This document shows positions 8,122 to 32,335 of a DNA stretch of 60,913 nt, piece after piece (position 1 is the first letter of the stretch; each line of letters starts with the position of its first letter). This DNA is from a virus. The notes under the pieces are model-generated. The model ran no database searches and had not been told where the DNA came from. It saw nothing but the letters and a program-made list of their open reading frames with translations. A program made the position numbers and the translations under genes. The stretch is taken from the IMG/VR virus record IMGVR_UViG_3300025706_000005, one strand, 5' to 3'.

Positions 8122-8303
8122 CAGAAACTCCTCCTGCAATCCGGGCAATAATGCTCCCAGCGATCCAGGCTCTTCAGAACCTTCCAGCCCTTTTCTTTGG
8201 CCAGCAGCCTGGCGTCGTCGAAGTCCAGGGCCTGAAGCTCTGCGGTGCAGTTCTCGCCGTCACACCGGACAACTGTGGTATCGGCGTCGATGGTTTTAAG
8301 CAT
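8121..8303 (-). CDS. Hypothetical small protein, 60 aa
   Basis: ATG at 8303 preceded by GAGGAGCCAAGCCA. Contains C...C ... CPDC. Confidence 0.5.
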   Translation of the reverse strand: MLKTIDADTTVVRCDGENCTAELQALDFDDARLLAKEKGWKVLKSLDRWEHYCPDCRRSF

Positions 8304-14637: not shown

Positions 14638-15071
14638 TTTGTTATCCTGTCGATGATGTTTAAATACCAGCTCTGCTGGTTCAAGGTCGCGGCCAGCAGT
14701 TCAAAGAAAGCCTGCTTGCTGGAGCTGATGCCAGGGCCCTTCCGTCCGTCCGGCAGAACAATGTCGTCGTATCCATTGCCGACGGCGATGCAGCCTTCCA
14801 GTTGCTCGGCCAGGTTCGCGCAATGAACCAACACGCCTTCGCGGAAAGGAACATTGTTCAAAAGAAAAGTCCAGGCCTTCAGTCTGTTGCTGAAGTGCCT
14901 GGTGCAAAGATACTGGCCGGCGGGGATGCGGCTTATCTTCTTTGCGTTGTTCTTCCACGGCAGTTCCAGCGTGCAGCAGAAGGGGATTGCACCCTTCTTC
15001 ATCACCCCGAAAGTTCCATATTTCGGGTCATCGCATATCCTGATAGTGTCAATCTCAATCAGCTTTTTCAT
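14634..15071 (-). CDS. DUF5675-like protein with a YkuD-like His/Cys motif, 145 aa (candidate cell-wall enzyme)
   Basis: ATG at 15071 in an ATGA overlap with the giant ORF stop. RIPAGQYLCTRH ... VLVHCANLAEQLEGCIAVG resembles the IPAGxY ... HxGN ... GCI pattern (from memory). Confidence 0.5.
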   Translation of the reverse strand: MKKLIEIDTIRICDDPKYGTFGVMKKGAIPFCCTLELPWKNNAKKISRIPAGQYLCTRHFSNRLKAWTFLLNNVPFREGVLVHCANLAEQLEGCIAVGNGYDDIVLPDGRKGPGISSSKQAFFELLAATLNQQSWYLNIIDRITK

Positions 15072-18000
15072 TTTACCGCCTTCCATTTTTTCACCAGCTC
15101 AACCTGCTTGTGACGGATAAGATGGTCGATATTGTCCAGGGATTTCTGGAGTTTCTTCTTCATTGCCGGGTTGTCCTTCGCCTCTTTATTCAACTCGTTC
15201 TTCATTTTACGAAGCCCGATGATGATGCCGTCCATGCTTCCGGGCACGCTGTCCTTCTGCTCTTCCATGTAAAGGTTCCAGATTGCCATCTGGCCAGGCG
15301 TCGCCCGTCCATTGGCAACCGTCCACGAAATCGTGCCTTCCTTCGACGGGCCGCCCAGGTCCTTGAATACTGTGGTTTTCTCGGTCTTTTCCAGGCCTCC
15401 GCCGATGTTCCAGTAATAGAGCTTTCCGGCCAGGGGGACGGACTGCCAAATATCCCAGTCCGCAATCTTCACGGCCTTTCCGTCTTGGACCGCGCCTACT
15501 GTCCTGGCAACGTCTTTGATTGCGCTCTCAAAAATACGGAATGGCGGAGCAACGATGTGGCTCAAGGCTTCAGCAAGTTCCAGCTTCTCGCCCTGGGGTC
15601 GGAATTGATAAATCTGATACTTGGTGAAGCCAAATAGCTTCAGCAGGTTGTCCACGGCGGTCTGTCCCAGACGCAACGGGCGGCCAGATAAGAAGTCTTT
15701 GATGGTGTCGCTGGTCATACCCAGGGCGATGGCGCCTCCGATGAAGGCCGCCAGCATACCAGCTGCGCGCTTGCGGACAGCCGGGTCCTTGTGCTTCAGC
15801 ATTTTGAAGAGCTGTTTCCGATAATTATTTAACTGCTTTATCGGATATTGCCGGAGCATATAAAGCGTCCTCAAGTTTCCGCCAGTTGAATAAAAAGGCG
15901 GAAGCTCAATCGGGTCAGCTGGGTGGAAGTCAAGTAGGACGTTGAACATGGCCAGCATGGTGTTGTCGGTGAGTTCGCCCTTCTTAAACTCATTCGCTGT
16001 TTGTTCCGCCAGGTCGGCTCCGACGTATTCCGTCAGCTCTGTCACCAGGAGCTTGCGCTGCTTCGGGCTGTTGGCCATGCTCCGATATTTGTAGAAGGCA
16101 GCATTAATCAGGTTGTTCTTCGCAAAGCGGTCGAAGGATGCCAGGCCAGACAGCTTAAAAACTTTTTCCATCGTCTTCGCCAGTTTCGTGGGCTCGGTAA
16201 ATTCGACGGCCAGGTTTTCAATTCCAAAGTCTTTCAGCACGTTGACTTTATTCTTCGACGTGATTGCCTTCAGCCAGTTCCAGGGCCCGGCAAAGCCGAC
16301 GGCAAAGGCCTGGTCCTGAAGCTGAGTGATGGCGCTGTGAATATGGCCCAGAGTTTCGATGTATTCAATGGTTCTGAAGGTGGACCAGAAATTTGTCATG
16401 GCCGTTGGAGAGAAGTAGCTGTTGAGAAGATACTTGGCGCGCGCCTCTGCGTCGCGGGTCAACTGGCCCTTCTCTATTAAGCTGTCCAGAACCTGCCCGA
16501 TGCTCTGCGGAACGTCCAGCTGCTCGTCCTTCAGGACTGCATACTGGCCAAAAAATTTCCGCATTTCAATACTCTCGGTCATTCCGTCGATGTATTTGAG
16601 AAGTGCGATGTCGCTGTGGTCGTAATAGATGTTAAGCTCCGGGCCGATAAATTCCACCATGCGCGCCTCTGTAAATCCGGGCTTCGGAATTTTCAGGCCG
16701 GCGGCATTGTATCCTCGGATTAAGGAGTTAATGAGCTTCCAGCGTTCTTCATTGGTCAGGGGTCGCTGCTTGCTTACCTGCTCCTGAATACGGCCCTGAA
16801 GCTCGTCATTCATGTCTTTGATGCGCTCGTCCAAGGCAGCTCGTTCTTTTGCGATGGATACTTGCAGTTCCTCTTCAGCCTTCTTCTGCTTCTCCTTGAT
16901 GCCGGGGTCCACGGCCTTCATCTGCTGCTGGGCCTGCGGTTCCTGCTGAAGTAGGGCCATGTATTTGGCCTGGAGTTCCGCAATTCTGGCGCCGGTCTTT
17001 TCTGTGATTTCTTTCAGGCGCTTTTCATAGTTTGCTTCCAGCTCCTTGATTTTGGCGTCGGCCTTCTCCCGCATGGCCTTTTCTTTTTCGGTGACGGCCT
17101 CCCGGATAACTGGATCGGCGTCGCCGTAGATATACTGCATGAAGCCTTCAAGGTCGCTGGTGGACCTGGGGGCATAAACATTCTGCCAGCCCATGTCAAA
17201 GCCGGCGCGCTTCGCCTCTGTGTAGATGCGGTCCAGGGCCGCGCGCTTCATGGCGTATTCGGCTTCCATGCCGTATTTCTTATTGAACCTCTCGATTTCC
17301 TTGTCCCAGCCATTCTTCTCCGCCAAGTCGTAGCTGGCCTTGTCCAGCTCATTCATGGCGCGCTTCTTTTGAAGGAACGGAATAACCATCATCCTCATTT
17401 CATTCCTGAAGCGCACTTTGTCCCGGACATATCGGCGCAAAGATACCCGTAAATCCGGGGCGATATTGAGGAGCTGGTCGCTGATGGGCACCACGGCCTT
17501 CTGCAAGAAAGTTCCTTCCTGCTTAATCTGCCGCAAGGCGCGCAATTTCTCCGGCTTCTTTTTCGCCTTCAGGCCCTTCATCTTCTCAAGGTTCTGCTTG
17601 TAGAGAAGGTCCAGGGCTTCGGGTTCGTCCTGTCCGATTGGCTGGCTGCCCATCATCCGGGCCTCGGCCTCGGAAAGCGAATATCTTACGTCGTGCTGTC
17701 CAGGAACGTCAGGCAGTTCCGCCCATAAGTCTGCCGCGTCAGCAGGCTGAAGGCTGAATTGCTCTCCGGCCTCTCGCCATTTCAGAACGTCAGATTTTTT
17801 GATGGTCTTGCCGGCGTAGAAATTGTCGATGTCGGCCATGATAACCGATGTCGGCGTTCCGTCAGGATATTCGTATTCAAAGACGCGCAACGGGCGCTCA
17901 TAATATCCGCTGGTGTTTAAGTCGCCCAGGCCTTCCCATAAGTCGATGACGATTTCTCCATTCTTCCCGCTGATGTATTGCTCCAGGGCCCTTCTCTGCT

Positions 18001-21000
18001 GCGGGTTCGGAGCCGTCACCATGTCCAGGGTTCCGCTGTTGTAGTCCATGCGGATATTCCCGGCAGCCATAAACTCTCTCATGCCGGCTGTTCCGCCAGG
18101 CATTTCTTCGTCGGCCTGCCCGATATCCCGGTGGTCCATCTGTCTCAGGCCGGCGCTGCCGCCGAATTTCTTACCAGAGAAGTCCAGGTATGAGCCTTTG
18201 GAATTGATGTAGCCGGCTTCTCTCAAGTCTGAAGTCGTGCCGAAATACCTGGTGACTTTCGCCGTTAGCCTGTCGGCGTCCGTCTTCTCGTATTTCCCGT
18301 GGCCCAGGGCGTATCTGATGGCTTCTGCGTGGTCGCCAGTCAGATCGCTCTTGAAGTTGGAAATAGCTCTCTTCGCGTCGTCCGGGCCTCTCCAGTCGTA
18401 TCCCAGGCGCTTCATGTAGGAATTGACCTTCGCCCATTGAGAGCGACGAATACTGTCAGGGGAGTAGATGGTGACGCTGCCGTCGTCGTGGAAATTAACC
18501 ATCGGCTTCATGGCCTCGCCTTCTCCGGCAACGGAGAATTGAGGCAAGGCCATGTTTTCTATTTCTATGGCGTCTGCTTCGCTCGGGGCAATCATGCCCA
18601 GGTCCCAGCCGTCTTCCGGCAGATATTCCCGGACTGGCACCCAGTCGTAGCCAAGCTGCCTGGCCGCTTCCCAGCGGTGGTGTCCGTCCACGATATAAAG
18701 GCCATCGGCGTCGCGCTCAACAATGATGGGCGGCAAGTCGATTTCTCCGGCTTTGATTATGTCCTTCATCTTCTCGACTTTGGCCCGTTCCTTCATGTCC
18801 TCGGTCGGCATGAGTTCGGAAGTCTTCGCCAGAACCATGTCCAGGAGCTTTCCGCCTTCGCTTACCACGTTCTTGTAGTCCGGGCTTGGCTTGGCGTCGC
18901 CGGTCCACGGCAGGCGGCTGTCGGGCACGCTGCCGGCTGGCTGGGTTGTGGTCTTCGGCTGGTCCGGCAGAGCCTGGACCTTCCTTGTTTCAATACTGAA
19001 CATGGGCAGGCCCAGCTCGGCAGCCTGCTTCATGGGTTCGGTAATGCGGATTGCCCAGACCTTTGTTTTCCGGCCCTGGTCGTCTTCGATTTCCCAGGTT
19101 TCAATCTGGCCGGCAGCCGGGTCCAGGGCCTTCGCTGCGCGCTGCATGGCGCGCGCGAAATTGAGACTGGATTTCCCTTCCGGGTCATAAAAGGAAGCCA
19201 TGCCCTCGCCGCCGATTTTCAGGTTCTCGGTCAGGACGTAGGCGTTCCCATTCGGATAGACGTTCTCGCGCTCGATAAGGCGCCTGGCAACGTCCTTTCC
19301 GACGTATTCAGCGATCTGCGCCTCGTCCTTCATCTTTCCGATGGTCTGGTAGGTTTCCTGGTTCTTTGGAACAAAAGCCAGCTCCTTCGTCTTTGGGTCG
19401 TAGGCAACCTTCTCGACGTAATTTGAGAGCTTGTATCTTTCGGCCTGGGTTTCTCCGGTGGTCCAGGTGACTGCCGGATATTCGTCAGTCGCGGCCTTGA
19501 TGATTGCCAGGCGCGCGGCCAGGTCGTTCCAGTTCTTTCCCCAGGGCGCCCATTCCGGCCTGCCAGAAACCTCCTGCCTATCTCTGGCAGACATTTTTCT
19601 TTCTTCCTCGTTAAATATTTCAACGGCCATCTCTCTGGCAAAGTCAGCGTCTGGAGCATCACCTGGTCCGTCGCCCTCTCTTATATCAACAAAATGCTGC
19701 CCGTCGTTGCTTTCAAAGGCCCAGGCACCATAAGGTCTGCGATCTGTTGGTGGCCTATACGCTTGCAGAGTAATATCTGGAATAGCGTAGGTTTTTTGTG
19801 CCGCGCTCTCCGGCTCAAAATATCCACCTTTCTGGACTGCTGCTTCGTGCCAATCGCTCTGGGCTTCGTCGATATGCAGGACACTTCCCAGGCCAGAGTC
19901 CGGGCTCCGGCGCGCCAGGTATTCTCCTACACGGAGCCGGAGAACCTGGTTAATGTCGGCTTCGTCGCCGTAAGCGTGGCCTACCGGGGTCCGATAGCGA
20001 AGTCCTATTTTCTCCTGCGGAATTGTCAGCAGGATTTCAGTATGGTTCTGGCCGCCTCGCAAAACGTAGTCTGATTTTCCCCACTTTGATTTTCCAGTTG
20101 CCGGTTCGATGCGATAATACTTTTCAAATTCATAGAAGTTTTGTTCGTTGGCGTATTCCTTTGCCGCGTCCATCGTGTCAAAGGCTTTGTCTTCTTCAAG
20201 ATACTGGGTCTGAAATTTTCCGTAATACGGGTCTTTGTAAATCAATATATTCGTTCCGTCAAATTTCTTGGCCTTGACGGCCTTGACCATGTTGTCGCCA
20301 CGCCTTGCGTGCGGAAAATTGATGGATAGTTCTATCTCTTTTTCGTCACCCCATTCCAGCTTTGTCGGAGCCTTTGCGCGCTGGATGACTTGGCGCTGGG
20401 CCATCGTCATTGTATTTTCCAGCGTCGTCCCGGTATAGATAACGGCGTTTTCTTCTGGTCCTGGATTGACCTCTTCAAGATGCCAGTAATTCGGACCTGA
20501 AGACCTGATGTGATACCTCAAGCCATCGTCCGCTTTTGTTTCGTAATAGGTGTCGCCGGTTGCTGTTTTGCGTTCCAGCCATACCAGCTTCTTTGCATAG
20601 GTTGGCTTCCTGGGCTCTGGTTTTGGCTGACCGCCAGGGGCAAGCGGCCCCTTGTATATCGGCTTCAGCTCGATGGCCTTCTGTTTGATGGCGCTTATTA
20701 GCTCGTCTTTGGTAATGGTCTGGCCTGGAGCCTGTTCGTCCAGCCATTTCAGGATGCCGGTTTCCTTCAGCTCGTCGGCTTTTGTGCCGCGTCCGCTGGA
20801 GGGGTCCAGATATTTCCGCCATTGTGCTGCCGGCGCAGCCTTCATCTTGGCTTCGCTGACGACTTTCTCCAGGTTGGAGTAAAGCCCTGTTTCCTGAACC
20901 TGATACGGAAGACCAGGTATCTGCGCCTGGCCAATTTCACCTGCCTGCGCCTGACCGGACAGGAAAATGTTGTTAGTCCGCTTCAGCTCTTCCACGGATC

Positions 21001-24000
21001 GACGGAGTTGCCCGACAACCGCTTCCCGGTAGTCCTTTAGGTGTTGCAGTTTCTCCAGGCGCCTGGCCTCATTCATCTTCCCGATGGTGGTCTTCTTTCC
21101 ACGGAATACTGTCGGGGTATTGTTCGGCTCATACCGGAGCTTGGCGGTTTCGCGGATTTGCTTGTCCAGGATGTTGATGGCGTCGAAAAGGTCATTGGCC
21201 GTCATGCCTTCGGTTCCGGGGACAGGGGGCGTCGTAGCAGGCGCCATGCTCATGGCCGGGCCTTCCGGCAGCTCTTCTGTTCTGGCGTCGATAACCAGGG
21301 CCGGCAGGCTCTTCTTGCCTAATACGGCCAATGCCGCAAGGCGGTGGCCGCCTTCCAGAATGTAGTAGCCTTCATTGTCCAGGACGGCAATCAAAGGCTT
21401 TATCTGTCCGCTGGCCTTTATGCGCTGCGCCAGCTCTTCGGACCATTCAATATCGTCCTTCGTGACATAAAGGTCCCTGGGCTTGGTCACGTTGAATTGG
21501 TCTAATCCTATTTCCCGGATGCCCGGAAGCTCCTCGTATTCGCCTTCGTTGAAGGTGGCGCTGATGCTGCTGGTGTTCGGTATGTCGTCCAGGACCTCCA
21601 GACCAGATACCACGGCGCCGGCTCTGGGCGGCTCTTCAAAAAGGCCCAGGCGTTTCTTCGCGGCCTCTACTGTCTCGCCTTCCTTCATCATCCAATGCGG
21701 ACTGTCTTTCCCGCCTTTGAACAGGACGTATGAAAAGAGCCGGTCGGCCTCGTTCTCGCCGTAGTTCTCGATTATCTTTGCTCCGTCGTAGCCCAGAGCC
21801 TCCAGGACCTGCGGGTCCATCGTCGCCCAGTCCACGTTCCGCTTGCCGTCCTCGCCTTTTGGCGCCATAAAATCGAAGTGCTGGAAGGTGAAGGTTTCTT
21901 CATCGCCGTCCACGTTCTTGTATTTCTTCCCGACGAAAGCCTGGAGCTTCTTGATGTCTTTCTGGCTCGTCGTGTCAAAGATGTTCCTGGTATCCACCAG
22001 GAATGAGTGAACGGCGCCGGCTCCGCCTGGGGCGTGCCCGGCAAAAGTCCTGGCGAATTGCGGTTCCGGGGTGAAGAATATTCCGCCGTAATCCTGGCCT
22101 TTTCCCAGGTTCTCTTCCGTGACCTGGCCGGCAACCCGTCCTCCCAGGACCAGCTTTTCTCCGATAATTTTCTCGGAGCCTCCATGATAGAGCCGGAGAT
22201 ACCTTTGCTGGGCCGGCTTCGGCGCTGCCGGCGCTATGCTCATTTGCGGAGCCTCGGCTTTTCTGGCCTTTGCGATGTCGCGCGCAATGGCTATTTCTGC
22301 TCCGGCTTCGTCGATGTAAACGTGGCCGGCAGGCAGGCCCTTGCTGTTCATATAGGTAATGCGCCAGCGGACGCCGCCGTTGTTGGCCAGCTCTGTGGAG
22401 TTGGCCCTGGAAAGGAAGCTGCCGTCCTGGAAGACATAAGAAGACCGCTTCGCCAGGACCTCCTTCGCCGTAGGCAACTGCATCTGGATTGTGGCTCTGA
22501 TGCGCTCCGGGGCGTCCGGGTCAAAGTTCTCCAGGTCCGCCGGCAATTCAGGGATTTGCTGTTTCCCGATTTCTTCAAGAAACTTATCCTGCTCGGCTTT
22601 GCTAAAGAGCTTCATCTGGGCTGCTGCCGCGCGCTCGGCTTCGTTGTCGTTGAAAAGGGGAAGGTCCTCGGCGCCACGGGCCTGGGCCGCTTCTTTCTCG
22701 GCCTTCTCCCGCTTATATTGCTCGATGGCCTGTCGCTCCGGGTTCACGGCCTGGCCAAAAAGGTCGGTCGCGGCAAGGGCGGTGCGGCGGTCCCAGGGCA
22801 ATTTTTTTTCTGGCTCTGCTTTTTCGGAAGTTGCAACACCTGTTATTTCAAAAGCCTTTTCTTGGGTTATTGGCCTGGCCATTCTGAAAGACTTTGAAAC
22901 ATGGAAGTATTTTCCACCAGGAGTTCTTATTACGCCTTCCTTCGCGTTGTCATTAATCCGCATGGCTGCGCTTTTAAATTCTTCGCCAGAAGTAGGTTTT
23001 TCAATGACTACTTCTTTTCCGTTGTAAATTGCGACGTGATGTTTTTTAATCGCTTTCGTGGTTGGTGTTTTTTGCTTCAGAAACTCCGGCGCCTCTTTCT
23101 CTTCGGACCAGGGCTTCTTGTTCGCAATCTCGTAGGTAAGCCCGGCCATAATCGGCTTCCCGGTCACGGCGTCTTTGGCTCCGCTTGGTGCGGGAACGGC
23201 ATGAGATACCCAGGCCAGGATGGTAGGCTTCTTCAGGCTCTTCACGGCCAGGAGTCGTCGGTGGCCATCTACCAGGCTCAACCTTCCGTCTTCCATTTCC
23301 GTGATTTCAACCGGGGGATATTGCTTCCCCTCCTTCATCCATTGAGCATACCTTTCGTCGTCGCCCCTCTTCACGGGGTCCAGGCGTCCTTCCCGGTCCA
23401 GCTCTGGCGCCAGAACGTCGGACACCTTGACCTCCATTAAGTGATCGATGGGATGGCCGTAAAGACTATTCAGCTTATCGTCGATGCGCCAGCTGCCTAC
23501 TGGCGGAACATCGATTTCAACCGGCGTCGTGCGGCTACTGGCGCCTTCGGCGTATGGAGCATAGAGCTTCCGCCGGTATTCGCTTGCCAGAATGTAGGCG
23601 CCTTTGTCAGCAGGCGGCTTCATTTCTGGGGCCAGCTCTTCAGCTGCCTTTGGAGCTTCAGGTATGGGTGCCGCGAACAAATCCATCTGGCCGGGTTTGG
23701 CTGACAACATGGTTTCTTTTCCTGGCCGATACTTGCCCTGGGCAACAATGCTTTCGTCGTTGAAGACAGCCAGGGCGTCGCCAGGATGGTCGTTCACGAT
23801 GTAGCTGTCGAATCCCTGCTGCTTTATCATGTCGATTACAGACGGCTTCTCCAGTATTTCCCAGTCGCCAGCCTTCGCTTCTTCGGTCCACCAGCTTTCC
23901 CAGTCAGCCTCTTTCTTCAGGGCTGCCTGGAGGCGCTTCTGATGCGTCGGGTTGTGATAGTCGAAGACGTTTTTGACGTTGACCTTTGCGGTTGTTATCC

Positions 24001-27000
24001 TGGGCCCGTATTGCTCGGCCAGGGCCGGCTCTCTGTGGAAATAGAGGGCTCCGCCTGCTCTGTCGCCCATGCCGGTCTGGAGCTGCGGATACCATTGCTT
24101 CGCCCCGTGGTAGAGAGGAACATTGTTCCAGGTGTCAGCCAGTCTTTTCGGGGCCACGCTGAAGGCTCGGCCCGTGGGCCTGGTTCCGGCCATTTCCGCG
24201 CGCGCCATCGCCGCCTTCTGCATTTCAAAGGTGCCTTCCCAGCTGGGTCCTCGCTGCCGCAAGACGGCAACAATGTCTTTGATGGCTTCGTCGATAAAGC
24301 GTTTGCGGTCCAGAGGCTTTCCGTTCCGCCCGATAAGGTTTTTGATTTTTGCGAAAAGCTGGTTCAAAAGCTGTCTGAAATAATGCAGCAGTCTTCCGGG
24401 GATGCCGGAAACAATCTGCTCCTTCCAGACGCGCTCCAGCTGGCGCGCCGCCCATTCGCTTCGGAGATATTTGTAGGCGGCTGCCTCACCGAAACCTTCT
24501 TTTCTCTGCTTCCAGGTCTGGTAGTAGTCCGGGAAGGCTCCGTATCGCGCGCGAAATTCTTTCCATTCCTTCTCTTCTTCGTAGCCGGCGCCATGTTTCT
24601 CCGCAATCCGTCGCCATTCCTGGTTGTAGTTGGCTTTGGCCCATTCCCATTCAGAACGGAAAAGGTCGTCCACCTGCTTCCTGATGCCAGGGTTTAAGGC
24701 CAGAACGATGTCGATGCCCAGGTGTCCTACTAGCTCATGCGCCAGAACATACTCCAGGCGCTCCGGGCCCAGGTTCGCGTTTATCCAGAGAAGTGAGTGC
24801 CCGACGCCTCCATGTCCACGGATAACAAAGCCCTCAATCATTCCTTCGCGCGCAACCGGAAGCTCCGCCGTCAGCGGTGCGTCTTCAGACACCACCAACT
24901 TTACCTTGTCCATTAGCTTTGCCATCTTCATCTTGGCGATGACTTTGGCATTGATTTCATCCAGGACCATCTTGTTGGTCAGGAGCTGCTTCGGAGTGGG
25001 ACGGCCCAGGGAAAACGGAAGTTCGCCGGTGTCGGCGTTGGGGTCGTAATCCAGGTTGCTGTCGTCGTATTCAGAACGCGGCGGCTCCGGTATTTGTCCG
25101 TTCTCGCCTGTCTCTGCTTCGTTCTGTATTTGGGCGTCCTTTTCCTTCTGCTCTGCCGGCGTCTGGGTGTCGATTTCTTCAGGAGTATCCAGGTCCACGT
25201 TCTTGCCAGGCGTCAGGTCTTCGGATACGGCCTCCTGCATGGTGTCTTCGTTGGCGTTCCTGGCTTCCTGGGGCTCGTTGGCAGCCAGGTTGCCCTGTTC
25301 CTCCTGAACAGCAGTCATGTAGTTGATATATTCCTGCTCGTCCTTCAGAGATTTCCTGGCCTGCTCCTCAACTGATTTCCAGAGCTGTGGCTTCGTCCGG
25401 TGCTTTCCGTCTTGATACCAATTGATTGCCGTGAGTATGGCCTCGCCGTGGCTCTGGGGCTCCTGGTATTCGGTTTCCTGCTCTTCCATATCAAAAGCCC
25501 GTTCCGTGGTTCCGGTAATGGCTTCTGATAAAACGCCAGGAAGGTCTGTGTCGATGGCTGGCTTGCGGTAGCCGTTAGGGCCAAGTATTCGCCCGTCTTT
25601 CTCCAGGATATCATTGTCGGTCATTCTGAAGAATTGTTTGATACGGGCCTTGCCCTTTGTCGCCCATTCCTCTCCGAAATAGGCTTTCATGCTCATGTAA
25701 GGTTCAAGGGTGGCCGGGTCTGTTGACCGCATTAAATCCAGCACGCTGTCGTTGAGATTAAACTCGGCCAGCTCTTTCTCGTAAATCCTCGCTCCGGCTT
25801 CAAAGATGTCTTGCCCGGTGTGCATATCAGCGCCGTAGGAAATGATGTATCGGCCAGGCCTCATGCCCATTTTCTGCATGCCGTAATTCTCAAGCTCCCG
25901 GCGCGCCTTGCGGACGGCCTGGTCATCAATTCTGAAGGTAATGGCCCTGGCGGCTTTAATGGCCTCATTCAGCTTGTTGGGGTCGCCCTGGTAGGTCTTC
26001 CAGTCCAGGACCAGCTTCTTCATGGCCGCATATTCCGGGACCTGGGCCGCGCGTATCCTGATGAATTTTGGATTGCCGGCCAGCTCGTATCCGCCTTCGT
26101 TCAGCTGTTCCCGGCTGATTAAGTGGGTCACAACCTCCGGCGGCTGATAGTCCGGCTTCTTAATGGGGTCATATCCGCGCTCACTCAACGGCAGATCGCG
26201 GCGCCCTGTCTTTGCCCAGGTTAAAAAACTGGCCATGTCCGGGAAGACGTAGTGCCCTTTGGCCAGCCTGATGTCGCGCTTCCCGCCTTTTTTGATTACG
26301 GCTGCGGTGTTCCTGGTGTATGCTTCCAGGGCCTCTTCCGGGCTCTTCCAGCCAATCATCGCAACGTGCTTGTCCAATCCTCCGTCTTCCATGAGACTGC
26401 GCTGGTTCACCACGACAACCGGGGCGTTCTTGGCCGGCGCCTGGTCATTGGTGTAGGCCCAGAGCTGCGGGTGGTCCGGCGCTTCCGTGTCAGGCAGTTT
26501 GCCGTAGGGGTTCTCGGTGACAAGCTGAACAGTCTGCTTTTTGCCTGATTTTTGGATGGTTCTAAAATCTCCGGGATTGCTGGTGACTTCGATTTTTACG
26601 CCGGCGATGGTCTTTGTCCTGGCGGCAATGGCTCTTTGCTCGGCCTCTTTGGCCTTTCTGTTCGCTTCCGCAACAATGGCTTCGGATTTCTTCTTGCCGG
26701 CTTCCGTGGTCGCGGTCATGTCCGGGTATTCCCGGAGAACGGACAGCGGAACATCCTTGCCAGCGTCCAGGGCCGCCTGAACGATGGCCCGGTGAGTAAA
26801 GCGGTCGTCCCTGGCTTTCTTGGCCTGGCTGATGGCCTTTGCATCCTTCGGGACAGAGGCTTCGTATTCAGCCTTCCAGGTGTCGGCCAGCTCCTTGCCG
26901 CGCGCCTCCTGGCCAAAAGGATTGAAGAGCATGGGATTGCCACGATACTGGCGCTCTACTGCGACAAATTGCTTGAACGGCTGGGCCCAGGGCACAAGGT

Positions 27001-30000
27001 TCTTCTCTCTCTTTTCCTTGAGCTGCTGATTGATGAAGGTGGTGGCTGCCTGCTTCGGGTTCTGGGCGTCTATGCGCCTGCCATCGGCCTCGGCCAGCCT
27101 GAAAAGGGCGTGCTTCGCCTCCGCCCCTTTTACTGGGTGGATGGTGGAGTCCTTGATGTCGCTGATTTCTTCGGCTGAAATACCGCTGTCCGCCAGCCTG
27201 GCTTCCAGATTGGCGGACAGCTCTTCAACCTCTTCCGGCAATAATTTGACTTTTGCTTCGGCTTCGGTGCCTTCGGGCCAGGTCAGTTGACCGGCTTCTT
27301 GTTTTCCAGGTAAAGGCGCTCTACCTCCGCCAGTTCCGCCAGCACCTTCGGGTTCTTCTCGCCTTCCCGTAATTTCGCCAACTTCTCTGGTATCGGCAGC
27401 CCTTCTACCCCCAGCCTGCGTGCGAGATTTTCTCGGCTCATAAGAGTTTTTCTCCTCGCTATAAACGTAATTTAATTTGTTTGCAATTTCAAGCAATTTC
27501 TTTTCTTTCATCGCGTCGGCCAGTTTGTCGGCCTCTTTTATCTTTGCTTGAACGTCGTCGCCCGGCTTTACCTCGGACACCCCATAATCAATTCCCAGGG
27601 CTCCGGTCGGCATACCCGCGTGTTTCGGATGCTTGGTTTCAGTAAGGCCTTTCTCGACTTTCTTGGCCTCGATGTTTGCTGCCGCCGCCTGCATCACGGC
27701 TTCAATTTCTTCGGCGGTCTTATAGGGAAATACGGCCTTAAACTCTTCGCCTTTGCTGCGCTCGATGACGCCTTTGGCGTCTTTGACTGCTTTGGAAAGG
27801 TTCTCTCCCCATATTTCGGCCATCAGCTCATTGGCGCCGTCGTGGCCGTAAACCTTATTTACTCCGCCCAGGTTCTGCCCGTCCGCCATGACGACGGCAA
27901 AAGGGATTTGCCGTTGCTGCATTTCCTTGATGGCCCGGCTTACGGCTCCGGCGTTGTAGGTGTCCGGGATGATGGTATCGTGGAAAGCGTCAGCGGCTTC
28001 GGTGAGAAGACCTTTTATTTCCTCGTCATCGGTCCTTTTGGCCGCGTTCCTATATCGGATAGTCGGGTCCAGAATATTGTCGATTACTTTGTCGTCGGCC
28101 CGGAGTTCCGGGACCGGAGCTGCCGCAATCACGGCTTCCCGCCGGTCCTTCTCTGGATCGGAGTATTCGCCCGTTTCTGTCGGAGTCTTGGCTTCAGGGG
28201 TCGGGGCGGTAAGCATTTCTCTGGTGGGCGGAGCCTCCAGCTTTTTGGCTGGTGGTTGTTCCGTCGGCTCCGCCCCGGCCTTTGGAGCCGGCGCCGTGGG
28301 TTCGGTTCGCTTCTGTTCAAAAGGACCTTCAGGAGCTTCCTGGTCAGCCTTCTTCTTGCCAGGCTGTCCCTTGTTCTCCATGAAATTGAGCATGGTTTCA
28401 AGGTTGATGCGTTTTACGTCCAGGTGGTCCAGCTCTTTCGTTGTGGCTGCGCGCTCCTCCGCGCTCATGGCCTGCCAGTCCTTGCCTTTCATTACGTCGC
28501 TGATGTCGGCCTGGTTCCGTTCCATTTCCAGCCGGATGGCTTCGGCGCCGCGTGCATAGAAGTCGTCCATCTTCCCGGCCTTCGCGGCCTGGTCTGCCGC
28601 CCGGTATTTGATGGCCGCTTCAGGGGTGGTGAAGTTGCCTCTTACTCCCCAGGCATGGAAAAGCATGATGCTGGCAGCTGCCGTCGCCAGCTCTTCAGGC
28701 GGCGGTGTTTCTCCGCCTTTCATCTTGGCCGCCAGGTATTCTGTGCCTGCGGACACGGCGCCTACTGTCAGGGTCTGGCCGGTGGTCTTGGCGATCTGTT
28801 CTGCCCGGCTGATACTCTGCATGACGGCCTTCTGGCCGATACCGGGCAAGGCGCCTACTGCACCCAGGGAGCCGAATACAACCGCTGATTTGCCTATGTC
28901 GGCAACCGAAAACTCCTGCTCCGGGTCCAGGACCTGCCCTGAAGCTCCGAATATGGCGCCTGTGCCTGTGCCTTCGATGATGTGCTGCGCTGCGGCGCCG
29001 GCCTTTGTGCCTGTCCTGGTGGCTCCGGCCAGGGCTTCCGGGACAAGGGCGGTAGCGCCCAGGGCCCTGCCTTCTGCCGCCAGCTTGGTCAGTCCTGCTT
29101 TGGATAGGGCTCCTGCACCCTTGAGCGCCGGCAATGACGCTGCAAAGTCGATAAGGCCCATTGTGAAGTTCTTGGCCGCAATCATACCGGAGTTCATTCC
29201 GTAGAATGTTTCCGGGTCGTCCTTAATCTCGTCCGGGGTGGTCAAGGCAACCGCGTCAACCGGGGAAATCGTAGTTCCCAGGCGCTTGGTGGCGCCCATT
29301 GTAGCTGCTGCCAGGCGTCCTTTCACGCTGGCCAGCAGCTCCGGCGTCATTCCGCCAGTCAGATACTTGCTCTGGGTCAGGCCGTCGGCCCATACCATTG
29401 CTTCACGGGCCAGTTCCTTAACCTTCTGCTGATATGCCGGGGTGTTCTGGTCCAGGCCCTTCAGTTGGTTCGCGGCCAGGTCCTGAAATCGCTGCTCCGT
29501 CGCGGCCTGCCGATATTCCGATACCTCTTTTAAAAACTCCTGGTCGCCGGAGCCCAGTTCTTCTGGCTTGGCTTTGGTCTGCGGCCTGGCTTCAAACTCT
29601 TCTTTCGGCTTTGCCGGTTGCTGCGGCTTCTGCTGGCGCTGCTTCTTTATGTCCATGCGGACCTGGGCCTGGGTCTTTGCAGCTCCAGTGATGGCGTCAG
29701 GTTCGGGTTCGGCAGGCGGTGGGACAATGGGTTGTGCTGTTATGTCCGGCGCGTTTTTAATTAGTATCGGGCGGACAGTGGGTTCGGTCTGGAATGTGGA
29801 CTGGGCCTCGTCAAGTCGGAGTCCGGCGTCAGGTAGCGGACCTATGGCCGGTGGCTCCGGCGGCAACATACTGGCAGGAGTATTTGCGCGTATCCTATCC
29901 AGCATATCCCGGTAAGGAACAACTGTTGTTTCTTCTGTTTCGGTAATGCTGGGTAGGTATTGTTCCGACTGCTTTGAAACACTGATACCGGAAATCGCTT

Positions 30001-30097
30001 CAAGGGCGCTCTTAAACTGTTCCGGTGTAGGGTTGTCGCTGGGAAATTCTACCTCATAGACCTGCCCGGTCCTCGGATGCGTTATTTCGTAGAGCAT
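15068..30097 (-). CDS. Giant multidomain (polyvalent-type) virion/ejection protein, 5,009 aa
   Basis: Uninterrupted 15,030-nt ORF in the internal-virion-protein position of the late operon. It carries multiple recognisable enzymatic motifs, listed as separate features. Confidence 0.9.
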   Translation of the reverse strand: MLYEITHPRTGQVYEVEFPSDNPTPEQFKSALEAISGISVSKQSEQYLPSITETEETTVVPYRDMLDRIRANTPASMLPPEPPAIGPLPDAGLRLDEAQSTFQTEPTVRPILIKNAPDITAQPIVPPPAEPEPDAITGAAKTQAQVRMDIKKQRQQKPQQPAKPKEEFEARPQTKAKPEELGSGDQEFLKEVSEYRQAATEQRFQDLAANQLKGLDQNTPAYQQKVKELAREAMVWADGLTQSKYLTGGMTPELLASVKGRLAAATMGATKRLGTTISPVDAVALTTPDEIKDDPETFYGMNSGMIAAKNFTMGLIDFAASLPALKGAGALSKAGLTKLAAEGRALGATALVPEALAGATRTGTKAGAAAQHIIEGTGTGAIFGASGQVLDPEQEFSVADIGKSAVVFGSLGAVGALPGIGQKAVMQSISRAEQIAKTTGQTLTVGAVSAGTEYLAAKMKGGETPPPEELATAAASIMLFHAWGVRGNFTTPEAAIKYRAADQAAKAGKMDDFYARGAEAIRLEMERNQADISDVMKGKDWQAMSAEERAATTKELDHLDVKRINLETMLNFMENKGQPGKKKADQEAPEGPFEQKRTEPTAPAPKAGAEPTEQPPAKKLEAPPTREMLTAPTPEAKTPTETGEYSDPEKDRREAVIAAAPVPELRADDKVIDNILDPTIRYRNAAKRTDDEEIKGLLTEAADAFHDTIIPDTYNAGAVSRAIKEMQQRQIPFAVVMADGQNLGGVNKVYGHDGANELMAEIWGENLSKAVKDAKGVIERSKGEEFKAVFPYKTAEEIEAVMQAAAANIEAKKVEKGLTETKHPKHAGMPTGALGIDYGVSEVKPGDDVQAKIKEADKLADAMKEKKLLEIANKLNYVYSEEKNSYEPRKSRTQAGGRRAADTREVGEITGRREEPEGAGGTGGGRAPLPGKQEAGQLTWPEGTEAEAKVKLLPEEVEELSANLEARLADSGISAEEISDIKDSTIHPVKGAEAKHALFRLAEADGRRIDAQNPKQAATTFINQQLKEKREKNLVPWAQPFKQFVAVERQYRGNPMLFNPFGQEARGKELADTWKAEYEASVPKDAKAISQAKKARDDRFTHRAIVQAALDAGKDVPLSVLREYPDMTATTEAGKKKSEAIVAEANRKAKEAEQRAIAARTKTIAGVKIEVTSNPGDFRTIQKSGKKQTVQLVTENPYGKLPDTEAPDHPQLWAYTNDQAPAKNAPVVVVNQRSLMEDGGLDKHVAMIGWKSPEEALEAYTRNTAAVIKKGGKRDIRLAKGHYVFPDMASFLTWAKTGRRDLPLSERGYDPIKKPDYQPPEVVTHLISREQLNEGGYELAGNPKFIRIRAAQVPEYAAMKKLVLDWKTYQGDPNKLNEAIKAARAITFRIDDQAVRKARRELENYGMQKMGMRPGRYIISYGADMHTGQDIFEAGARIYEKELAEFNLNDSVLDLMRSTDPATLEPYMSMKAYFGEEWATKGKARIKQFFRMTDNDILEKDGRILGPNGYRKPAIDTDLPGVLSEAITGTTERAFDMEEQETEYQEPQSHGEAILTAINWYQDGKHRTKPQLWKSVEEQARKSLKDEQEYINYMTAVQEEQGNLAANEPQEARNANEDTMQEAVSEDLTPGKNVDLDTPEEIDTQTPAEQKEKDAQIQNEAETGENGQIPEPPRSEYDDSNLDYDPNADTGELPFSLGRPTPKQLLTNKMVLDEINAKVIAKMKMAKLMDKVKLVVSEDAPLTAELPVAREGMIEGFVIRGHGGVGHSLLWINANLGPERLEYVLAHELVGHLGIDIVLALNPGIRKQVDDLFRSEWEWAKANYNQEWRRIAEKHGAGYEEEKEWKEFRARYGAFPDYYQTWKQRKEGFGEAAAYKYLRSEWAARQLERVWKEQIVSGIPGRLLHYFRQLLNQLFAKIKNLIGRNGKPLDRKRFIDEAIKDIVAVLRQRGPSWEGTFEMQKAAMARAEMAGTRPTGRAFSVAPKRLADTWNNVPLYHGAKQWYPQLQTGMGDRAGGALYFHREPALAEQYGPRITTAKVNVKNVFDYHNPTHQKRLQAALKKEADWESWWTEEAKAGDWEILEKPSVIDMIKQQGFDSYIVNDHPGDALAVFNDESIVAQGKYRPGKETMLSAKPGQMDLFAAPIPEAPKAAEELAPEMKPPADKGAYILASEYRRKLYAPYAEGASSRTTPVEIDVPPVGSWRIDDKLNSLYGHPIDHLMEVKVSDVLAPELDREGRLDPVKRGDDERYAQWMKEGKQYPPVEITEMEDGRLSLVDGHRRLLAVKSLKKPTILAWVSHAVPAPSGAKDAVTGKPIMAGLTYEIANKKPWSEEKEAPEFLKQKTPTTKAIKKHHVAIYNGKEVVIEKPTSGEEFKSAAMRINDNAKEGVIRTPGGKYFHVSKSFRMARPITQEKAFEITGVATSEKAEPEKKLPWDRRTALAATDLFGQAVNPERQAIEQYKREKAEKEAAQARGAEDLPLFNDNEAERAAAAQMKLFSKAEQDKFLEEIGKQQIPELPADLENFDPDAPERIRATIQMQLPTAKEVLAKRSSYVFQDGSFLSRANSTELANNGGVRWRITYMNSKGLPAGHVYIDEAGAEIAIARDIAKARKAEAPQMSIAPAAPKPAQQRYLRLYHGGSEKIIGEKLVLGGRVAGQVTEENLGKGQDYGGIFFTPEPQFARTFAGHAPGGAGAVHSFLVDTRNIFDTTSQKDIKKLQAFVGKKYKNVDGDEETFTFQHFDFMAPKGEDGKRNVDWATMDPQVLEALGYDGAKIIENYGENEADRLFSYVLFKGGKDSPHWMMKEGETVEAAKKRLGLFEEPPRAGAVVSGLEVLDDIPNTSSISATFNEGEYEELPGIREIGLDQFNVTKPRDLYVTKDDIEWSEELAQRIKASGQIKPLIAVLDNEGYYILEGGHRLAALAVLGKKSLPALVIDARTEELPEGPAMSMAPATTPPVPGTEGMTANDLFDAINILDKQIRETAKLRYEPNNTPTVFRGKKTTIGKMNEARRLEKLQHLKDYREAVVGQLRRSVEELKRTNNIFLSGQAQAGEIGQAQIPGLPYQVQETGLYSNLEKVVSEAKMKAAPAAQWRKYLDPSSGRGTKADELKETGILKWLDEQAPGQTITKDELISAIKQKAIELKPIYKGPLAPGGQPKPEPRKPTYAKKLVWLERKTATGDTYYETKADDGLRYHIRSSGPNYWHLEEVNPGPEENAVIYTGTTLENTMTMAQRQVIQRAKAPTKLEWGDEKEIELSINFPHARRGDNMVKAVKAKKFDGTNILIYKDPYYGKFQTQYLEEDKAFDTMDAAKEYANEQNFYEFEKYYRIEPATGKSKWGKSDYVLRGGQNHTEILLTIPQEKIGLRYRTPVGHAYGDEADINQVLRLRVGEYLARRSPDSGLGSVLHIDEAQSDWHEAAVQKGGYFEPESAAQKTYAIPDITLQAYRPPTDRRPYGAWAFESNDGQHFVDIREGDGPGDAPDADFAREMAVEIFNEEERKMSARDRQEVSGRPEWAPWGKNWNDLAARLAIIKAATDEYPAVTWTTGETQAERYKLSNYVEKVAYDPKTKELAFVPKNQETYQTIGKMKDEAQIAEYVGKDVARRLIERENVYPNGNAYVLTENLKIGGEGMASFYDPEGKSSLNFARAMQRAAKALDPAAGQIETWEIEDDQGRKTKVWAIRITEPMKQAAELGLPMFSIETRKVQALPDQPKTTTQPAGSVPDSRLPWTGDAKPSPDYKNVVSEGGKLLDMVLAKTSELMPTEDMKERAKVEKMKDIIKAGEIDLPPIIVERDADGLYIVDGHHRWEAARQLGYDWVPVREYLPEDGWDLGMIAPSEADAIEIENMALPQFSVAGEGEAMKPMVNFHDDGSVTIYSPDSIRRSQWAKVNSYMKRLGYDWRGPDDAKRAISNFKSDLTGDHAEAIRYALGHGKYEKTDADRLTAKVTRYFGTTSDLREAGYINSKGSYLDFSGKKFGGSAGLRQMDHRDIGQADEEMPGGTAGMREFMAAGNIRMDYNSGTLDMVTAPNPQQRRALEQYISGKNGEIVIDLWEGLGDLNTSGYYERPLRVFEYEYPDGTPTSVIMADIDNFYAGKTIKKSDVLKWREAGEQFSLQPADAADLWAELPDVPGQHDVRYSLSEAEARMMGSQPIGQDEPEALDLLYKQNLEKMKGLKAKKKPEKLRALRQIKQEGTFLQKAVVPISDQLLNIAPDLRVSLRRYVRDKVRFRNEMRMMVIPFLQKKRAMNELDKASYDLAEKNGWDKEIERFNKKYGMEAEYAMKRAALDRIYTEAKRAGFDMGWQNVYAPRSTSDLEGFMQYIYGDADPVIREAVTEKEKAMREKADAKIKELEANYEKRLKEITEKTGARIAELQAKYMALLQQEPQAQQQMKAVDPGIKEKQKKAEEELQVSIAKERAALDERIKDMNDELQGRIQEQVSKQRPLTNEERWKLINSLIRGYNAAGLKIPKPGFTEARMVEFIGPELNIYYDHSDIALLKYIDGMTESIEMRKFFGQYAVLKDEQLDVPQSIGQVLDSLIEKGQLTRDAEARAKYLLNSYFSPTAMTNFWSTFRTIEYIETLGHIHSAITQLQDQAFAVGFAGPWNWLKAITSKNKVNVLKDFGIENLAVEFTEPTKLAKTMEKVFKLSGLASFDRFAKNNLINAAFYKYRSMANSPKQRKLLVTELTEYVGADLAEQTANEFKKGELTDNTMLAMFNVLLDFHPADPIELPPFYSTGGNLRTLYMLRQYPIKQLNNYRKQLFKMLKHKDPAVRKRAAGMLAAFIGGAIALGMTSDTIKDFLSGRPLRLGQTAVDNLLKLFGFTKYQIYQFRPQGEKLELAEALSHIVAPPFRIFESAIKDVARTVGAVQDGKAVKIADWDIWQSVPLAGKLYYWNIGGGLEKTEKTTVFKDLGGPSKEGTISWTVANGRATPGQMAIWNLYMEEQKDSVPGSMDGIIIGLRKMKNELNKEAKDNPAMKKKLQKSLDNIDHLIRHKQVELVKKWKAVK
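15698..17110 (-). other. Giant ORF aa ~4330-4800: long coiled coil followed by a hydrophobic C-terminal segment
   Basis: KEKAMREKADAKIKELEANYEKRLKEITEKTGARIAELQAKY ... then RKRAAGMLAAFIGGAIALGMT. Confidence 0.5.
18608..18865 (-). other. Giant ORF aa ~3745-3830: ParB/Srx-like domain 3
   Basis: LPPIIVERDADGLYIVDGHHRWEAARQLGYDWVPVREY. The DGHHR codons were verified at 18674-18688. Confidence 0.6.
21278..21535 (-). other. Giant ORF aa ~2855-2940: ParB/Srx-like domain 2
   Basis: IKPLIAVLDNEGYYILEGGHRLAALAVLGKKSLPALVID. Confidence 0.5.
21698..22210 (-). other. Giant ORF aa ~2630-2800: ADP-ribosyltransferase-like domain 2
   Basis: LRLYHGGSEKI ... DYGGIFFTPEPQFARTFAG ... VHSFLVDTRNIFD ... LGYDGAKIIENYGENEADRLFSYVLF. 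Confidence 0.55.
23198..23515 (-). other. Giant ORF aa ~2195-2300: ParB/Srx-like domain 1
   Basis: YPPVEITEMEDGRLSLVDGHRRLLAVKSLKKPTILAWV. The DGHRR codons were verified near 23255-23270. Confidence 0.55.
23738..24145 (-). other. Giant ORF aa ~1985-2120: ADP-ribosyltransferase-like domain 1 (ART-PolyVal-like, H-Y-[EDQ] type)
   Basis: VPLYHGAKQW ... GGALYFHREPALAEQYG ... VKNVFDY ... GFDSYIVNDHPGDALAVF. Confidence 0.5.
24668..24865 (-). other. Giant ORF aa ~1745-1810: HExxxH motif region (possible metallopeptidase)
   Basis: GHGGVGHSLLWINANLGPERLEYVLAHELVGHLGIDIV. The HELVGH codons were verified at 24722-24739. This is not the canonical HExxH spacing. Confidence 0.3.
27488..28000 (-). other. 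Giant ORF aa ~700-870: GGDEF-like nucleotide cyclase domain (KGEEF variant, no RxxD I-site)
   Basis: FAVVMADGQNLGGVNKVYGHDGANELM ... VIERSKGEEFKAVF ... ALGIDYGVS ... EADKLADAMKEKK is collinear with the DxDxFKxxNDxxGHxxGDxxL ... RxGGEEF ... SxGxx ... ADxAxYxAK layout. The KGEEF codons were verified at 27740-27754. Confidence 0.6.
28628..29200 (-). other. Giant ORF aa ~300-490: Gly/Ala-rich hydrophobic segments
   Basis: GMIAAKNFTMGLIDFAASLPALKGAGAL, GAIFGASG, SAVVFGSLGAVGALPGIG, ATAAASIMLFHAWGV. Confidence 0.5.
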
Positions 30098-31462: not shown

Positions 31463-32335
31463 TTATGCGGTCGCTGCGCGACGTTCCCAGAAATTGTAGT
31501 TCTGCTGCTTTCCAGCTTCGGAGTTAAACAAATTCATGGTCCCCATGATAAGCTGGATGGCCTGGTTGATGCCGTTGACGCGGTTCTGCTCCGCGATGTC
31601 GGCCTTCTTCATGGAGATCGCTTCTTTTGTGGAGTATTCTTCCAGGTCAGCCTTCCGCCTGGCGGAGCCTTCGGCCACCAGCTGCGCCCTCTCGGCTTCA
31701 TCCAGCTGGCGCTCTGTGAGCTTTCGGTTTAATTCCCAGCGGCGCTTTTCTTCGGCTACCTGTTCGGCCTGGAATTGTTCGGCTCTTTTTTGCGCGGCCT
31801 CTTCAGCCTTCCGCTGTTTGCTGGCGTAATACCATTGGACACCCAGGCCAATAAGGCCGGCCACGGCTCCGACAATGGGGACTACGGCGCCGGCTGTTGC
31901 CAGGATGCCCGTGGTAGCTGCCGCTGCGCCGGTTCCGATAAGGCCTGCCGCCTTCGCTGCCGTAGCTGCTCCGCCTGCGATATTGGCTGCCGCTGCTACA
32001 TTCTCCAGGGCTCCTGGGCTCTGCTGCATACCTGCGCCAGTATTGTCCATGCTGGGCTGAAACTGGGGGCTTGCAATGTTCCTGCTTCCGCCACGCTCCA
32101 GCATTTCCTGGGTGAGCGATGGCGGTGCCGCTTCGATGACGCTGGGCCTCGGTGTCGTTGTTCCAAAGTCCATCGCGCGCTCCGATGAAAGGCCCAGGCT
32201 CAACGGCCTGGGGGCCGCCATGAATAACGACTGGCCAGGAGTGAATTGGCTTTGCAATTCTTCTGGTTTGTAGCCGAAAGTCTCTTCAAAAGAGAACGGC
32301 TTTGTCGGCGGGAGATTGATGTCGAAAGTTGCCAT
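31463..32335 (-). CDS. Internal virion protein with a Gly/Ala-rich membrane segment and coiled coil, 290 aa
   Basis: AGGATAAKAAGLIGTGAAAATTGILATAGAVVPIVGAVAGLIGLGVQWYY followed by a charged helical region. Confidence 0.6.
   Translation of the reverse strand: MATFDINLPPTKPFSFEETFGYKPEELQSQFTPGQSLFMAAPRPLSLGLSSERAMDFGTTTPRPSVIEAAPPSLTQEMLERGGSRNIASPQFQPSMDNTGAGMQQSPGALENVAAAANIAGGAATAAKAAGLIGTGAAAATTGILATAGAVVPIVGAVAGLIGLGVQWYYASKQRKAEEAAQKRAEQFQAEQVAEEKRRWELNRKLTERQLDEAERAQLVAEGSARRKADLEEYSTKEAISMKKADIAEQNRVNGINQAIQLIMGTMNLFNSEAGKQQNYNFWERRAATA

Follow-up and report, generated by a model that had tools for sequence, protein, structure and literature searches.

Polyvalent proteins are widespread in phages and conjugative elements, and their cutting into separate effectors is so far a prediction. 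Iyer et al. 2017 (PMC5512222) had already predicted that embedded metallopeptidases release the domains of such proteins; their paper names no cleavage or junction motif, and the word 'linker' is absent from it. The window analysed here, that is, the whole 60,913-nucleotide (nt) stretch of IMG/VR virus record IMGVR_UViG_3300025706_000005, encodes a 5,009 amino acid (aa) product in a single uninterrupted open reading frame (ORF; 15068..30097 (-)). Judged from its sequence, the product qualifies as a polyvalent protein as Iyer et al. 2017 use the term: several disparate effector domains (GGDEF, InPase, ART-PolyVal and ParB) are joined in one chain, and the gene is phage-encoded in a delivery-type context, a block that includes terminase, portal and major head protein genes. 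It resembles the proteins of that study in being a huge multidomain protein encoded beside virion genes, and in carrying ART-PolyVal, InPase, ParB-like and metallopeptidase-like domains. It differs from them in that the last of these domains has the motif HExxGH rather than HExxH and is unmatched by the MPTase-PolyVal model, and in that its C-terminal anchor belongs to a large uncultured family without a Pfam, PHROG, PDB or INPHARED match. The subject of this report is an aromatic/Met-Ser-aliphatic peptide that recurs along the chain and, as far as comparison of related proteins can tell, is a short linear motif at the junctions of exchangeable effector modules. The junction motif is not described in PMC5512222 or in the literature found by string search. 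A search of the literature with DIRYS/DIRFS-type strings returned nothing relevant.

Like viral polyproteins, phage head proteins are processed at short consensus sites, L/I-x-E for T4 gp21, S/A/G-x-E for phiKZ/SPN3US and A↓S for the herpesvirus/HK97 assemblin. The present case is similar to such processing, in logic though not in sequence, in that a short consensus in exposed segments delimits capsid-borne units, and in that the protease may be part of the substrate chain. It differs in its consensus, which is aromatic/Met-Ser-aliphatic with no Glu at P1, and in that the sites are candidates; as the preliminary description of this DNA had noted, there is no evident prohead protease, and Pfam and PHROGs reveal no such gene (gp21 or assemblin type) in the structural module. 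Processing of the T4 gp21/phiKZ gp175 type was rejected on these two counts, the lack of such a protease gene and of a Glu consensus in the motif. Short junction peptides are also known from polymorphic toxins, for example VENN in CdiA and PxxxxDPxGL in Rhs proteins, the Rhs one being an autoproteolytic site as well. There, too, a conserved short peptide marks the border of exchanged variable modules; the toxins, however, have one junction before a single C-terminal toxin, whereas here there are about a dozen between serial modules, and the sequences are unrelated. Another polyvalent ejection protein, the 2,811-aa gp47 of the E. coli phage phi24B, has been detected in virions (bioRxiv 10.64898/2026.04.10.717836). 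Like the present protein it is large and polyvalent, its metallopeptidase domain having a putative counterpart here; a podovirus capsid carries it, and its ejection has been proposed. Unlike it, gp47 shows no excess of the aromatic-Ser-aliphatic motif (1 against 1.7 expected) or of the QxDLF class of linker peptide discussed below (0 against 0.4; both counts cover 2,617 residues), and the two proteins have no sequence relationship.

The preliminary description listed nine strings of the type [FM]-S-[LIVM]-[AG]-P in the giant protein. All nine are found at the residues given for them, the tripeptides spanning nt 25007-25015 (F1695) to 17675-17683 (Y4139), where residue i begins at nt 30097-3(i-1). 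The strict pattern fits only three of the sites, and what they have in common is the shorter core aromatic/Met-Ser-aliphatic. F1695-S-L (GELPFSLGRP, 25007..25015 (-)) stands directly N-terminal to the HExxGH domain, in a segment with a predicted local distance difference test score (pLDDT) below 50. F1979-S-V (GRAFSVAPK, 24155..24163 (-)), the equivalents of which read QYSL, MLSV or AMSR in orthologs, lies between that domain and the first ART domain (ART-1). The string at L2131-S-A (ETMLSAKPG, 23699..23707 (-)) is present but is better read as the tail of ART-1, equivalent to 'DIRYS' when ART tails are aligned by eye and matching 'PDIRYS' tails by position; the ortholog P0012 carries PMLSVPDGQMDLFG in the linker homologous to this tail. 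M2619-S-I (APQMSIAPAAP, 22235..22243 (-)) precedes a second ART domain (ART-2), which is related to ART-1 and has the same motif-to-LYHG spacing, and aligns with GPAFSLDPS of the ortholog P0002 at the end of a high-scoring segment pair (HSP). Further along, M2949-S-M (GPAMSMAPATT, 21245..21253 (-)) follows the second ParB-like domain (ParB-2), whose homology block ends at aa 2936, and F3700-S-I (GLPMFSIETR, 18992..19000 (-)) is in the C-terminal tail of the 'GGEGM' domain. F3854-S-V (ALPQFSVAGEG, 18530..18538 (-)) follows ParB-3 and is aligned with NIRYSIPAN of P0010, and F4114-S-L (GEQFSLQPA, 17750..17758 (-)) follows the module of aa 3874-4112, where homology blocks end at aa 4102-4112. After a 25-aa spacer, Y4139-S-L (DVRYSLSEAE, 17675..17683 (-)) forms the first residues of the conserved C-terminal region. 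Three modules are thus bracketed by sites on both sides: the HExxGH domain by 1695 and 1979, ART-1 by 1979 and 2131, and ParB-3 by 3700 and 3854. Two core matches are additional to the nine, F396 (EQEFSVAD) and M1468 (EPYMSMKA), as are two related strings centred on F that occupy other linkers, QMKLFS at 2494 and LGLFEEPP at 2817. The former of these (Q2494-M-K-L-F-S, 22601..22618 (-)), in which a Qxx[LM]F motif and the F-S motif overlap, ends a module of the form DLFG...KREKAEKE...LPLFN.

The placement of the sites at module borders, as first proposed, was borne out: the listed sites are near the ends of homology blocks and in predicted flexible linkers. Seven of the nine are at most 15 aa from the end of a BLAST homology block, compared with 31% of random positions (P = 0.005). 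A cruder border test, based on the absence of any HSP across the site, was non-significant (P = 0.15); it is a weak test because close orthologs span several modules, and the distance to HSP ends was used instead. In the AlphaFold2 model of aa 1680-2000, F1695 and F1979 are in tails of pLDDT<50 around a moderately confident core, and in that of aa 3300-3880 F3700 is directly followed by the low-confidence linker, which starts at aa 3701, and F3854 lies within a linker of pLDDT<50 (aa 3850-3865) between ParB-3 and the next module.

Modules that are not homologous to one another end in similar peptides. ART modules of several proteins end ...QIKSA..N.G.F.P.NPDIRYS, the tail of the 'GGEGM' domain, G[QL]P[LM][FY][SQ], is conserved in many homologs, and a conserved charged module of about 55 aa ends QQxLFS. 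In different orthologs these unlike tails (ART, GGEGM and QQxLFS) are joined in register to the same [YF]S-LSE C-terminal region, so the peptide behaves as a common junction. The 'GGEGM...FYD' domain (aa 3336-3700, 18998-20092 (-)) occurs in at least 15 other giant proteins of varied architectures, always with the tail just given; it has no Pfam match, and its AlphaFold2 model is of moderate confidence. The highly charged module (aa 2445-2499, 22601-22765 (-)), DLFG...YKREKAEKE...EDLPLFNxNE...AQ(Q/M)xLFS, is conserved in all five orthologs and contains three Phe motifs (DLFG 2445, LPLFN 2479 and QMKLFS 2494).

The closest relative in a collection of 5.8 billion proteins is P0002 (4,590 aa), and a profile of the C-terminal region searched against 1.84 billion cluster representatives returned P0010, P0011 and P0012; with the 5,009-aa protein these make up a clade of five. 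Searches of INPHARED phages (blastn and tblastn) gave no further orthologs or annotation, a search of viral contigs for orthologs returned nothing, and one of metagenome contigs returned only the known P0002 contig. Conservation of the motif, which had been proposed as a check, is borne out in these relatives, with several junction positions aligned. Although defined on the giant protein, the motif recurs with the same flanks in P0002, P0010 and P0012, and strings found in the relatives include APFSID, LPFSLA, LRLFSLKP, LRFSLAP, PAFSLDP, LPMFSLS, LPFSIAK, SLFSLPG, MRFSLSP, IRMSLPA, LPLFSLAKP, IRYSIPA, TPFSLY, RLFSIRG, QPMFSLA and IRYSLAG. The Phe-Ser pair before the HExxGH domain is present in 5/5 orthologs and provides the sole invariant residues of the acidic/Pro-rich linker at the N-terminal side. 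At the C-terminal junction the sequences are DVRYSLSE in the present protein, MFSLSGDE in P0002, DIRYSLSE in P0010, DIRYSLSD in P0011 and SRPSLSE in P0012, so that an aromatic-Ser-Leu is found in 4/5 (R-[YF]-S-L-S in 3/5 and LPMFSLS in P0002, with SRPSLS in P0012). At 2498, 2619 and 3854 the orthologs have an aligned aromatic-Ser, in many cases exactly where the alignment of a BLAST block stops. The site at 2494 has L/F-F-S in all five orthologs (with QLRLFSL, QQSLFSL, QQRLFSI and QQSFFSR), and a Qxx[LM]F match is kept there in four of the five; the M1468 site is not conserved. The possibility that the Met-Ser sites are former or internal start codons was dismissed, as M2619 aligns with Phe in P0002. 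P0003-P0009 are not enriched for the motif. It is lineage-specific, being confined to one clade and absent from more distant polyvalent proteins.

The comparison with shuffled sequences gave a mixed answer. In the giant protein there are 9 matches to [FM]S[LIVM] where 2.2 are expected, a number reached by none of 1000 shuffles (0/1000). For the extended patterns [FM]S[LIVM][AG] and P.[FM]S[LIVM] the counts are 6 and 5, respectively, against 0.4 and 0.12 expected from shuffles, and the other 29 proteins of the window have 5 core matches in 12,034 aa, which is the background rate. The excess over shuffles therefore stands, but the raw count is not significant after correction for multiple testing: of 42,875 class combinations, approximately 12,000 degenerate tripeptide patterns reach five or more occurrences, and [FM]S[LIVM] comes only 22nd among them (Poisson p = 4.7e-4). 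Since the pattern was picked after looking at the sequence, the raw count alone proves nothing, and raw enrichment as a proof was dropped because of this rank. The decisive evidence for the motif does not depend on this count and consists of recurrence in relatives, enrichment in linkers, conservation of position, and codon use. The five clade proteins have 18 occurrences of [FMY]S[LIVM] in their hydrophobic-poor segments compared with 3.2 expected (P ~1e-8), while in 153 other fetched proteins the motif is depleted (20 compared with 33.9 expected). Over twelve sites, six Ser codons are AGY and six are TCN, and the flanking codons differ; mixed Ser codons and differing flanks indicate selection at the level of the protein and not a repeated DNA element, and a DNA-level repeat or recombination signal was ruled out on the same grounds.

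The function that we tentatively favour for the junction peptide is that of a recognition site for endoproteolysis of a polyprotein, cut probably by the embedded HExxGH zincin-like domain. Cutting would take place between the aromatic residue or Met and the Ser, with F, M, Y or L at P1, S at P1', L, I, V or M at P2' and often a Pro at P4'-P5'. The scissile bond is placed here because this pair is invariant and because the new N-terminal Ser would be stabilising; under the bacterial N-end rule an N-terminal Ser is stabilising, and Leu or Phe is not. The candidate enzyme, the HExxGH domain of aa ~1730-1950, is itself bracketed by two of the sites, the cut could be made while the protein is in the capsid or once it has been ejected into the cell, and the ART, ParB-like and other modules would be released from the conserved C-terminal anchor domain. 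A processing function is consistent with the enrichment in linkers, the predicted disorder, the bracketing of modules, the convergent tails and the signs of selection on the protein, as well as with the invariant site beside the HExxGH domain and with the result that no separate prohead protease gene was found. The published prediction of autoproteolysis (PMC5512222) is extended in this way by a junction motif with a candidate enzyme alongside. With the junction peptide conserved and a candidate enzyme next to an invariant copy of it, the processing prediction can be tested directly. Real sites of this kind would provide rules for parsing the modules of giant proteins, and they would represent a new protease specificity or, alternatively, a new docking code linking injected effectors to host hubs like the sliding clamp. 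Because the motif is confined to a single, sparsely sampled clade of uncultured phages, its reach is limited for now.

The HExxxH region had been proposed as the processing enzyme, and here the result is divided: the region belongs to a conserved domain with an invariant downstream Glu, but the profile and fold matches to peptidases are weak. The zincin-like domain covers about 220 aa (~aa 1730-1950, 24248..24910 (-)), with H1787-E1788-L-V-G-H1792 at nt 24722-24739 and the invariant E1816 28 residues downstream. In the model, three beta-strands followed by the motif helix resemble the zincin layout (mean pLDDT 60, five sequences). Among the fetched proteins, the only ones with the domain are the five clade members and a distant homolog, P0003, in which the sequence QLSLFS precedes and TFFSP follows a domain with HEIMGH. 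The putative zinc motif reads HELVGH in the present protein and HELIGH, HEILSH and HEIVGH in three orthologs, so that HE[LI]x[GS]H is found in 4/5, and P0012 has the classical spacing with HETLH. The sequence HEXXGH is the functional zinc site of the M49 family enzyme DPP III, in which HEXXH variants also occur (PMC5805324, PMC9820243), and the alternation of hexapeptide and pentapeptide within the clade mirrors that within M49 DPP III. By analogy with this precedent, the unusual spacing is probably no argument against catalysis. The domain was not assigned to M49 DPP III, which is defined by HEXXGH together with a second motif, EEXR(K)AE(D), in a two-lobe enzyme of ~700 aa: the hexapeptide alone is shared, no sequence or fold match was found, and the domain has only ~220 aa.

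Several observations weigh against processing by this domain. No significant match to a peptidase family was obtained by profile or fold. Pfam gave no match to MPTase-PolyVal and one to Peptidase_M78 that was below the cutoff (E = 0.14), the two best Foldseek matches, a zincin-like protein and an M61 peptidase, had E = 0.5, a profile search of PDB with the domain returned nothing, and the model has a mean pLDDT of 60 from five sequences. Only one clade carries both the motif and the HExxGH domain, so that common descent confounds their joint occurrence. The motif is degenerate, its core tripeptide has the modest rank given above, and the first 1,690 residues, which include several domains, have only two core matches, one of which (M1468) is unconserved. 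Beyond the clade, phi24B gp47 is without the motif, and some polyvalent virion proteins, such as the N4 vRNAP, are packaged unprocessed (PMC5512222).

A serious, though less likely, alternative, which the preliminary description had also considered, is that the peptides are docking sites. They would be multivalent linear motifs that bind a host hub, most plausibly the beta sliding clamp or another replisome hub; on this account the effector modules would be tethered or concentrated on host or phage DNA, or the hub would be sequestered. Clamp-binding motifs are used by insertion sequence (IS) transposases (PMC4549789), the Mu protein MuC (PMC12867686) and the SocB toxin (PMC9690074), and the junction peptides are similar to them in being short, in lying in disordered segments and in having a hydrophobic-Ser/Asp-hydrophobic centre, which they share with QLSLF. 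A second class of linker peptide in these proteins, Q-x-[DS]-[LMI]-F-[GAS], matches the clamp-binding consensus QL(S/D)LF (PMC9690074) well. It is represented in the giant protein by Q2137-M-D-L-F (23675..23689 (-)), in P0010 by QLDMF and QLDLF, in P0012 by QMDLF, in P0011 by QIDIF and QVDMF and in P0003 by the QLSLFS just before the HEIMGH domain. This QxDLF class is enriched both in the clade (7 against 0.74 expected) and in the other proteins (31 against 10.6). Docking is also favoured by a Gln preceding 3/9 junction sites (QMSIAP, QFSVAG and QFSLQP) and by the plausible reliance of the virus on the host replisome, since a scan of window proteins turned up no DNA polymerase; it did find a single-stranded DNA-binding protein (SSB), a nuclease, a Lin1244/DnaD-like protein and a marginal RecT-like protein (E = 0.0027, below the Pfam cutoff). 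The clamp sequence, however, is that of the QxD[LM]F class and not of the nine listed sites: these are without the terminal anchor, the Phe/Leu of consensus position 5 (0/9), usually lack the Gln of position 1 (present in only 3/9), and come in many copies per chain, all unlike known clamp motifs (PMC9690074, PMC4549789). After the HExxGH domain, moreover, both classes occur as distinct neighbours 4-8 residues apart (MLSAKPGQMDLF, YSLGKSAAAEQLDMF and AMSRAAEQIDIF), and neighbouring but separate classes point to two functions side by side. It is also conceivable, but highly improbable, that the two ideas combine, and that a cut after the aromatic residue unmasks C-terminal tails mimicking two classic peptides that bind bacterial replisome hubs, the beta-clamp-binding motif and the SSB tip, so that the effectors would each be addressed to the host replication fork, to the clamp or to the SSB interactome. 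The clamp-like tails would be QMKLF↓S in the present protein, QLRLF↓S, QQSLF↓S and QQRLF↓S in orthologs and QLSLF↓S in P0003, and those like the SSB tip TGELPF↓S here, DEDLPF↓S in P0002 and DEPLPF↓S in P0010; the string at aa 1691-1696 would be C-terminal only if the chain were cut after the Phe. The SSB of the phage itself (9581-10225 (-)) ends ...PIDDDPDLPF.

Hydrophobic residues that stand alone in polar linkers typically serve as contacts for chaperones or for packing, and a further, rather unlikely explanation of the sites is structural, with no particular enzyme or partner in the host, either as a hydrophobic 'cap' or hinge closing each module or, equally unlikely, as a binding site for a chaperone or ratchet in capsid packing, tail threading and modular refolding of the 5,009-aa chain. 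The conserved ends of two domains that are widespread in many unrelated architectures, GGEGM and ART, account for at least two instances, and F3700, as the last residue before a low-confidence linker, fits a cap. Such a cap is at odds with sites 1695, 2619, 2949, 3854 and 4114, which lie inside predicted disordered linkers and not at domain edges, generic hydrophobic contacts leave the invariant Ser between two hydrophobic positions unexplained, and other internal proteins of the same virion module do without the motif. Disfavoured, and improbable in our estimate, is a post-hoc pattern or a historical residue, namely a relic of duplication or fusion (with the Met-Ser sites as former starts) or a functionless DNA recombination junction. 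Apart from the modest rank of the tripeptide count, this would agree with the M2619 and M2949 sites being identical at 16/18 nt (ATG AGC AT[AG] GCG CC[GT] GC[AT]) and with the equal distance of the motif from LYHG in ART-1 and ART-2, as in a duplicated module. Chance does not readily account for a motif that recurs independently, and at conserved positions, in four other giant proteins of 25-47% identity, or for the linker enrichment at P ~1e-8 with depleted controls. A relic is opposed by the Phe of P0002 aligned with M2619, because of which M2619 is not a conserved start codon, by a self-BLAST of the giant protein that found no recent internal duplication (E <= 0.01), and by the equal use of AGY and TCN codons with differing flanks.

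The 5,009-aa ORF is not an assembly artefact, because it was assembled independently in ENA, JGI and Logan data. Its gene is in one minus-strand block, downstream of virion genes that encode the small and large terminase subunits, portal, a 459-aa scaffold-like protein and the major head protein. The genes upstream of it in the block also include several for structural proteins of 750-1,330 aa and those for large tail/internal proteins. From this gene order the 5,009-aa protein is inferred to be virion-borne. A BLAST comparison with all fetched proteins shows a mosaic: all five clade members share a conserved core at the N-terminal side (aa ~670-1950), the middle part consists of variable modules that are found in other orders in other proteins, and the C-terminal region comes last. 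The domains recognised by Pfam and PHROGs are GGDEF (aa 720-866, Pfam 7.8e-11), InPase (aa 1159-1269, Pfam 1.8e-10), the ART-PolyVal domain ART-1 (aa 1994-2116, 1e-6 on the isolated segment) and three ParB-like N-terminal domains (~aa 2230-2295, 2869-2940 and 3760-3822; ParB_N 4.5e-9 and PHROG ParB matches), of which ParB-3 has the ParB/Srx fold (Foldseek against ParB/Noc/sulfiredoxin, E ~1e-4). The GGDEF-type nucleotide cyclase and the inorganic pyrophosphatase stand together in the conserved N-terminal core (window 26291-27940 (-)), a pairing that suggests synthesis of, or interference with, a nucleotide signal on entry.

The conserved C-terminal region (aa 4139-5009, 15071..17683 (-)) has its core at aa 4449-4919, which belongs to a very large uncultured family with 2,596 representatives at 50% identity. 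The family domain is always C-terminal, in proteins of ~600-5,000 aa with variable N-terminal cargo, and searches with the region found no Pfam, PHROG, PDB-sequence or INPHARED match. The core contains a hydrophobic, possibly membrane-spanning stretch, GMLAAFIGGAIALGM.

Strings related to the motif had also been pointed out in two other internal proteins, of 290 and 1,184 aa. This was not corroborated, the strings being in regions unaligned with the orthologs on contig L001, which lack [FM]S[LIVM]. A shared capsid-targeting signal was likewise discarded, as the 447-, 290- and 1,184-aa neighbours and the L001 orthologs are without the motif. The 290-aa protein (31463-32335 (-)), encoded in the cluster of internal protein genes, has a holin-like/transmembrane segment at aa 119-201 (PHROG holin, E ~6e-5), and its conservation in the L001 ortholog is limited to the C-terminal half. 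Near the two ends of the window, ~50 kb apart, are two paralogues of PHROG 2776 (7453-8148 (-) and 58117-58725 (-)), with a weak match to a DNA-repair protein.

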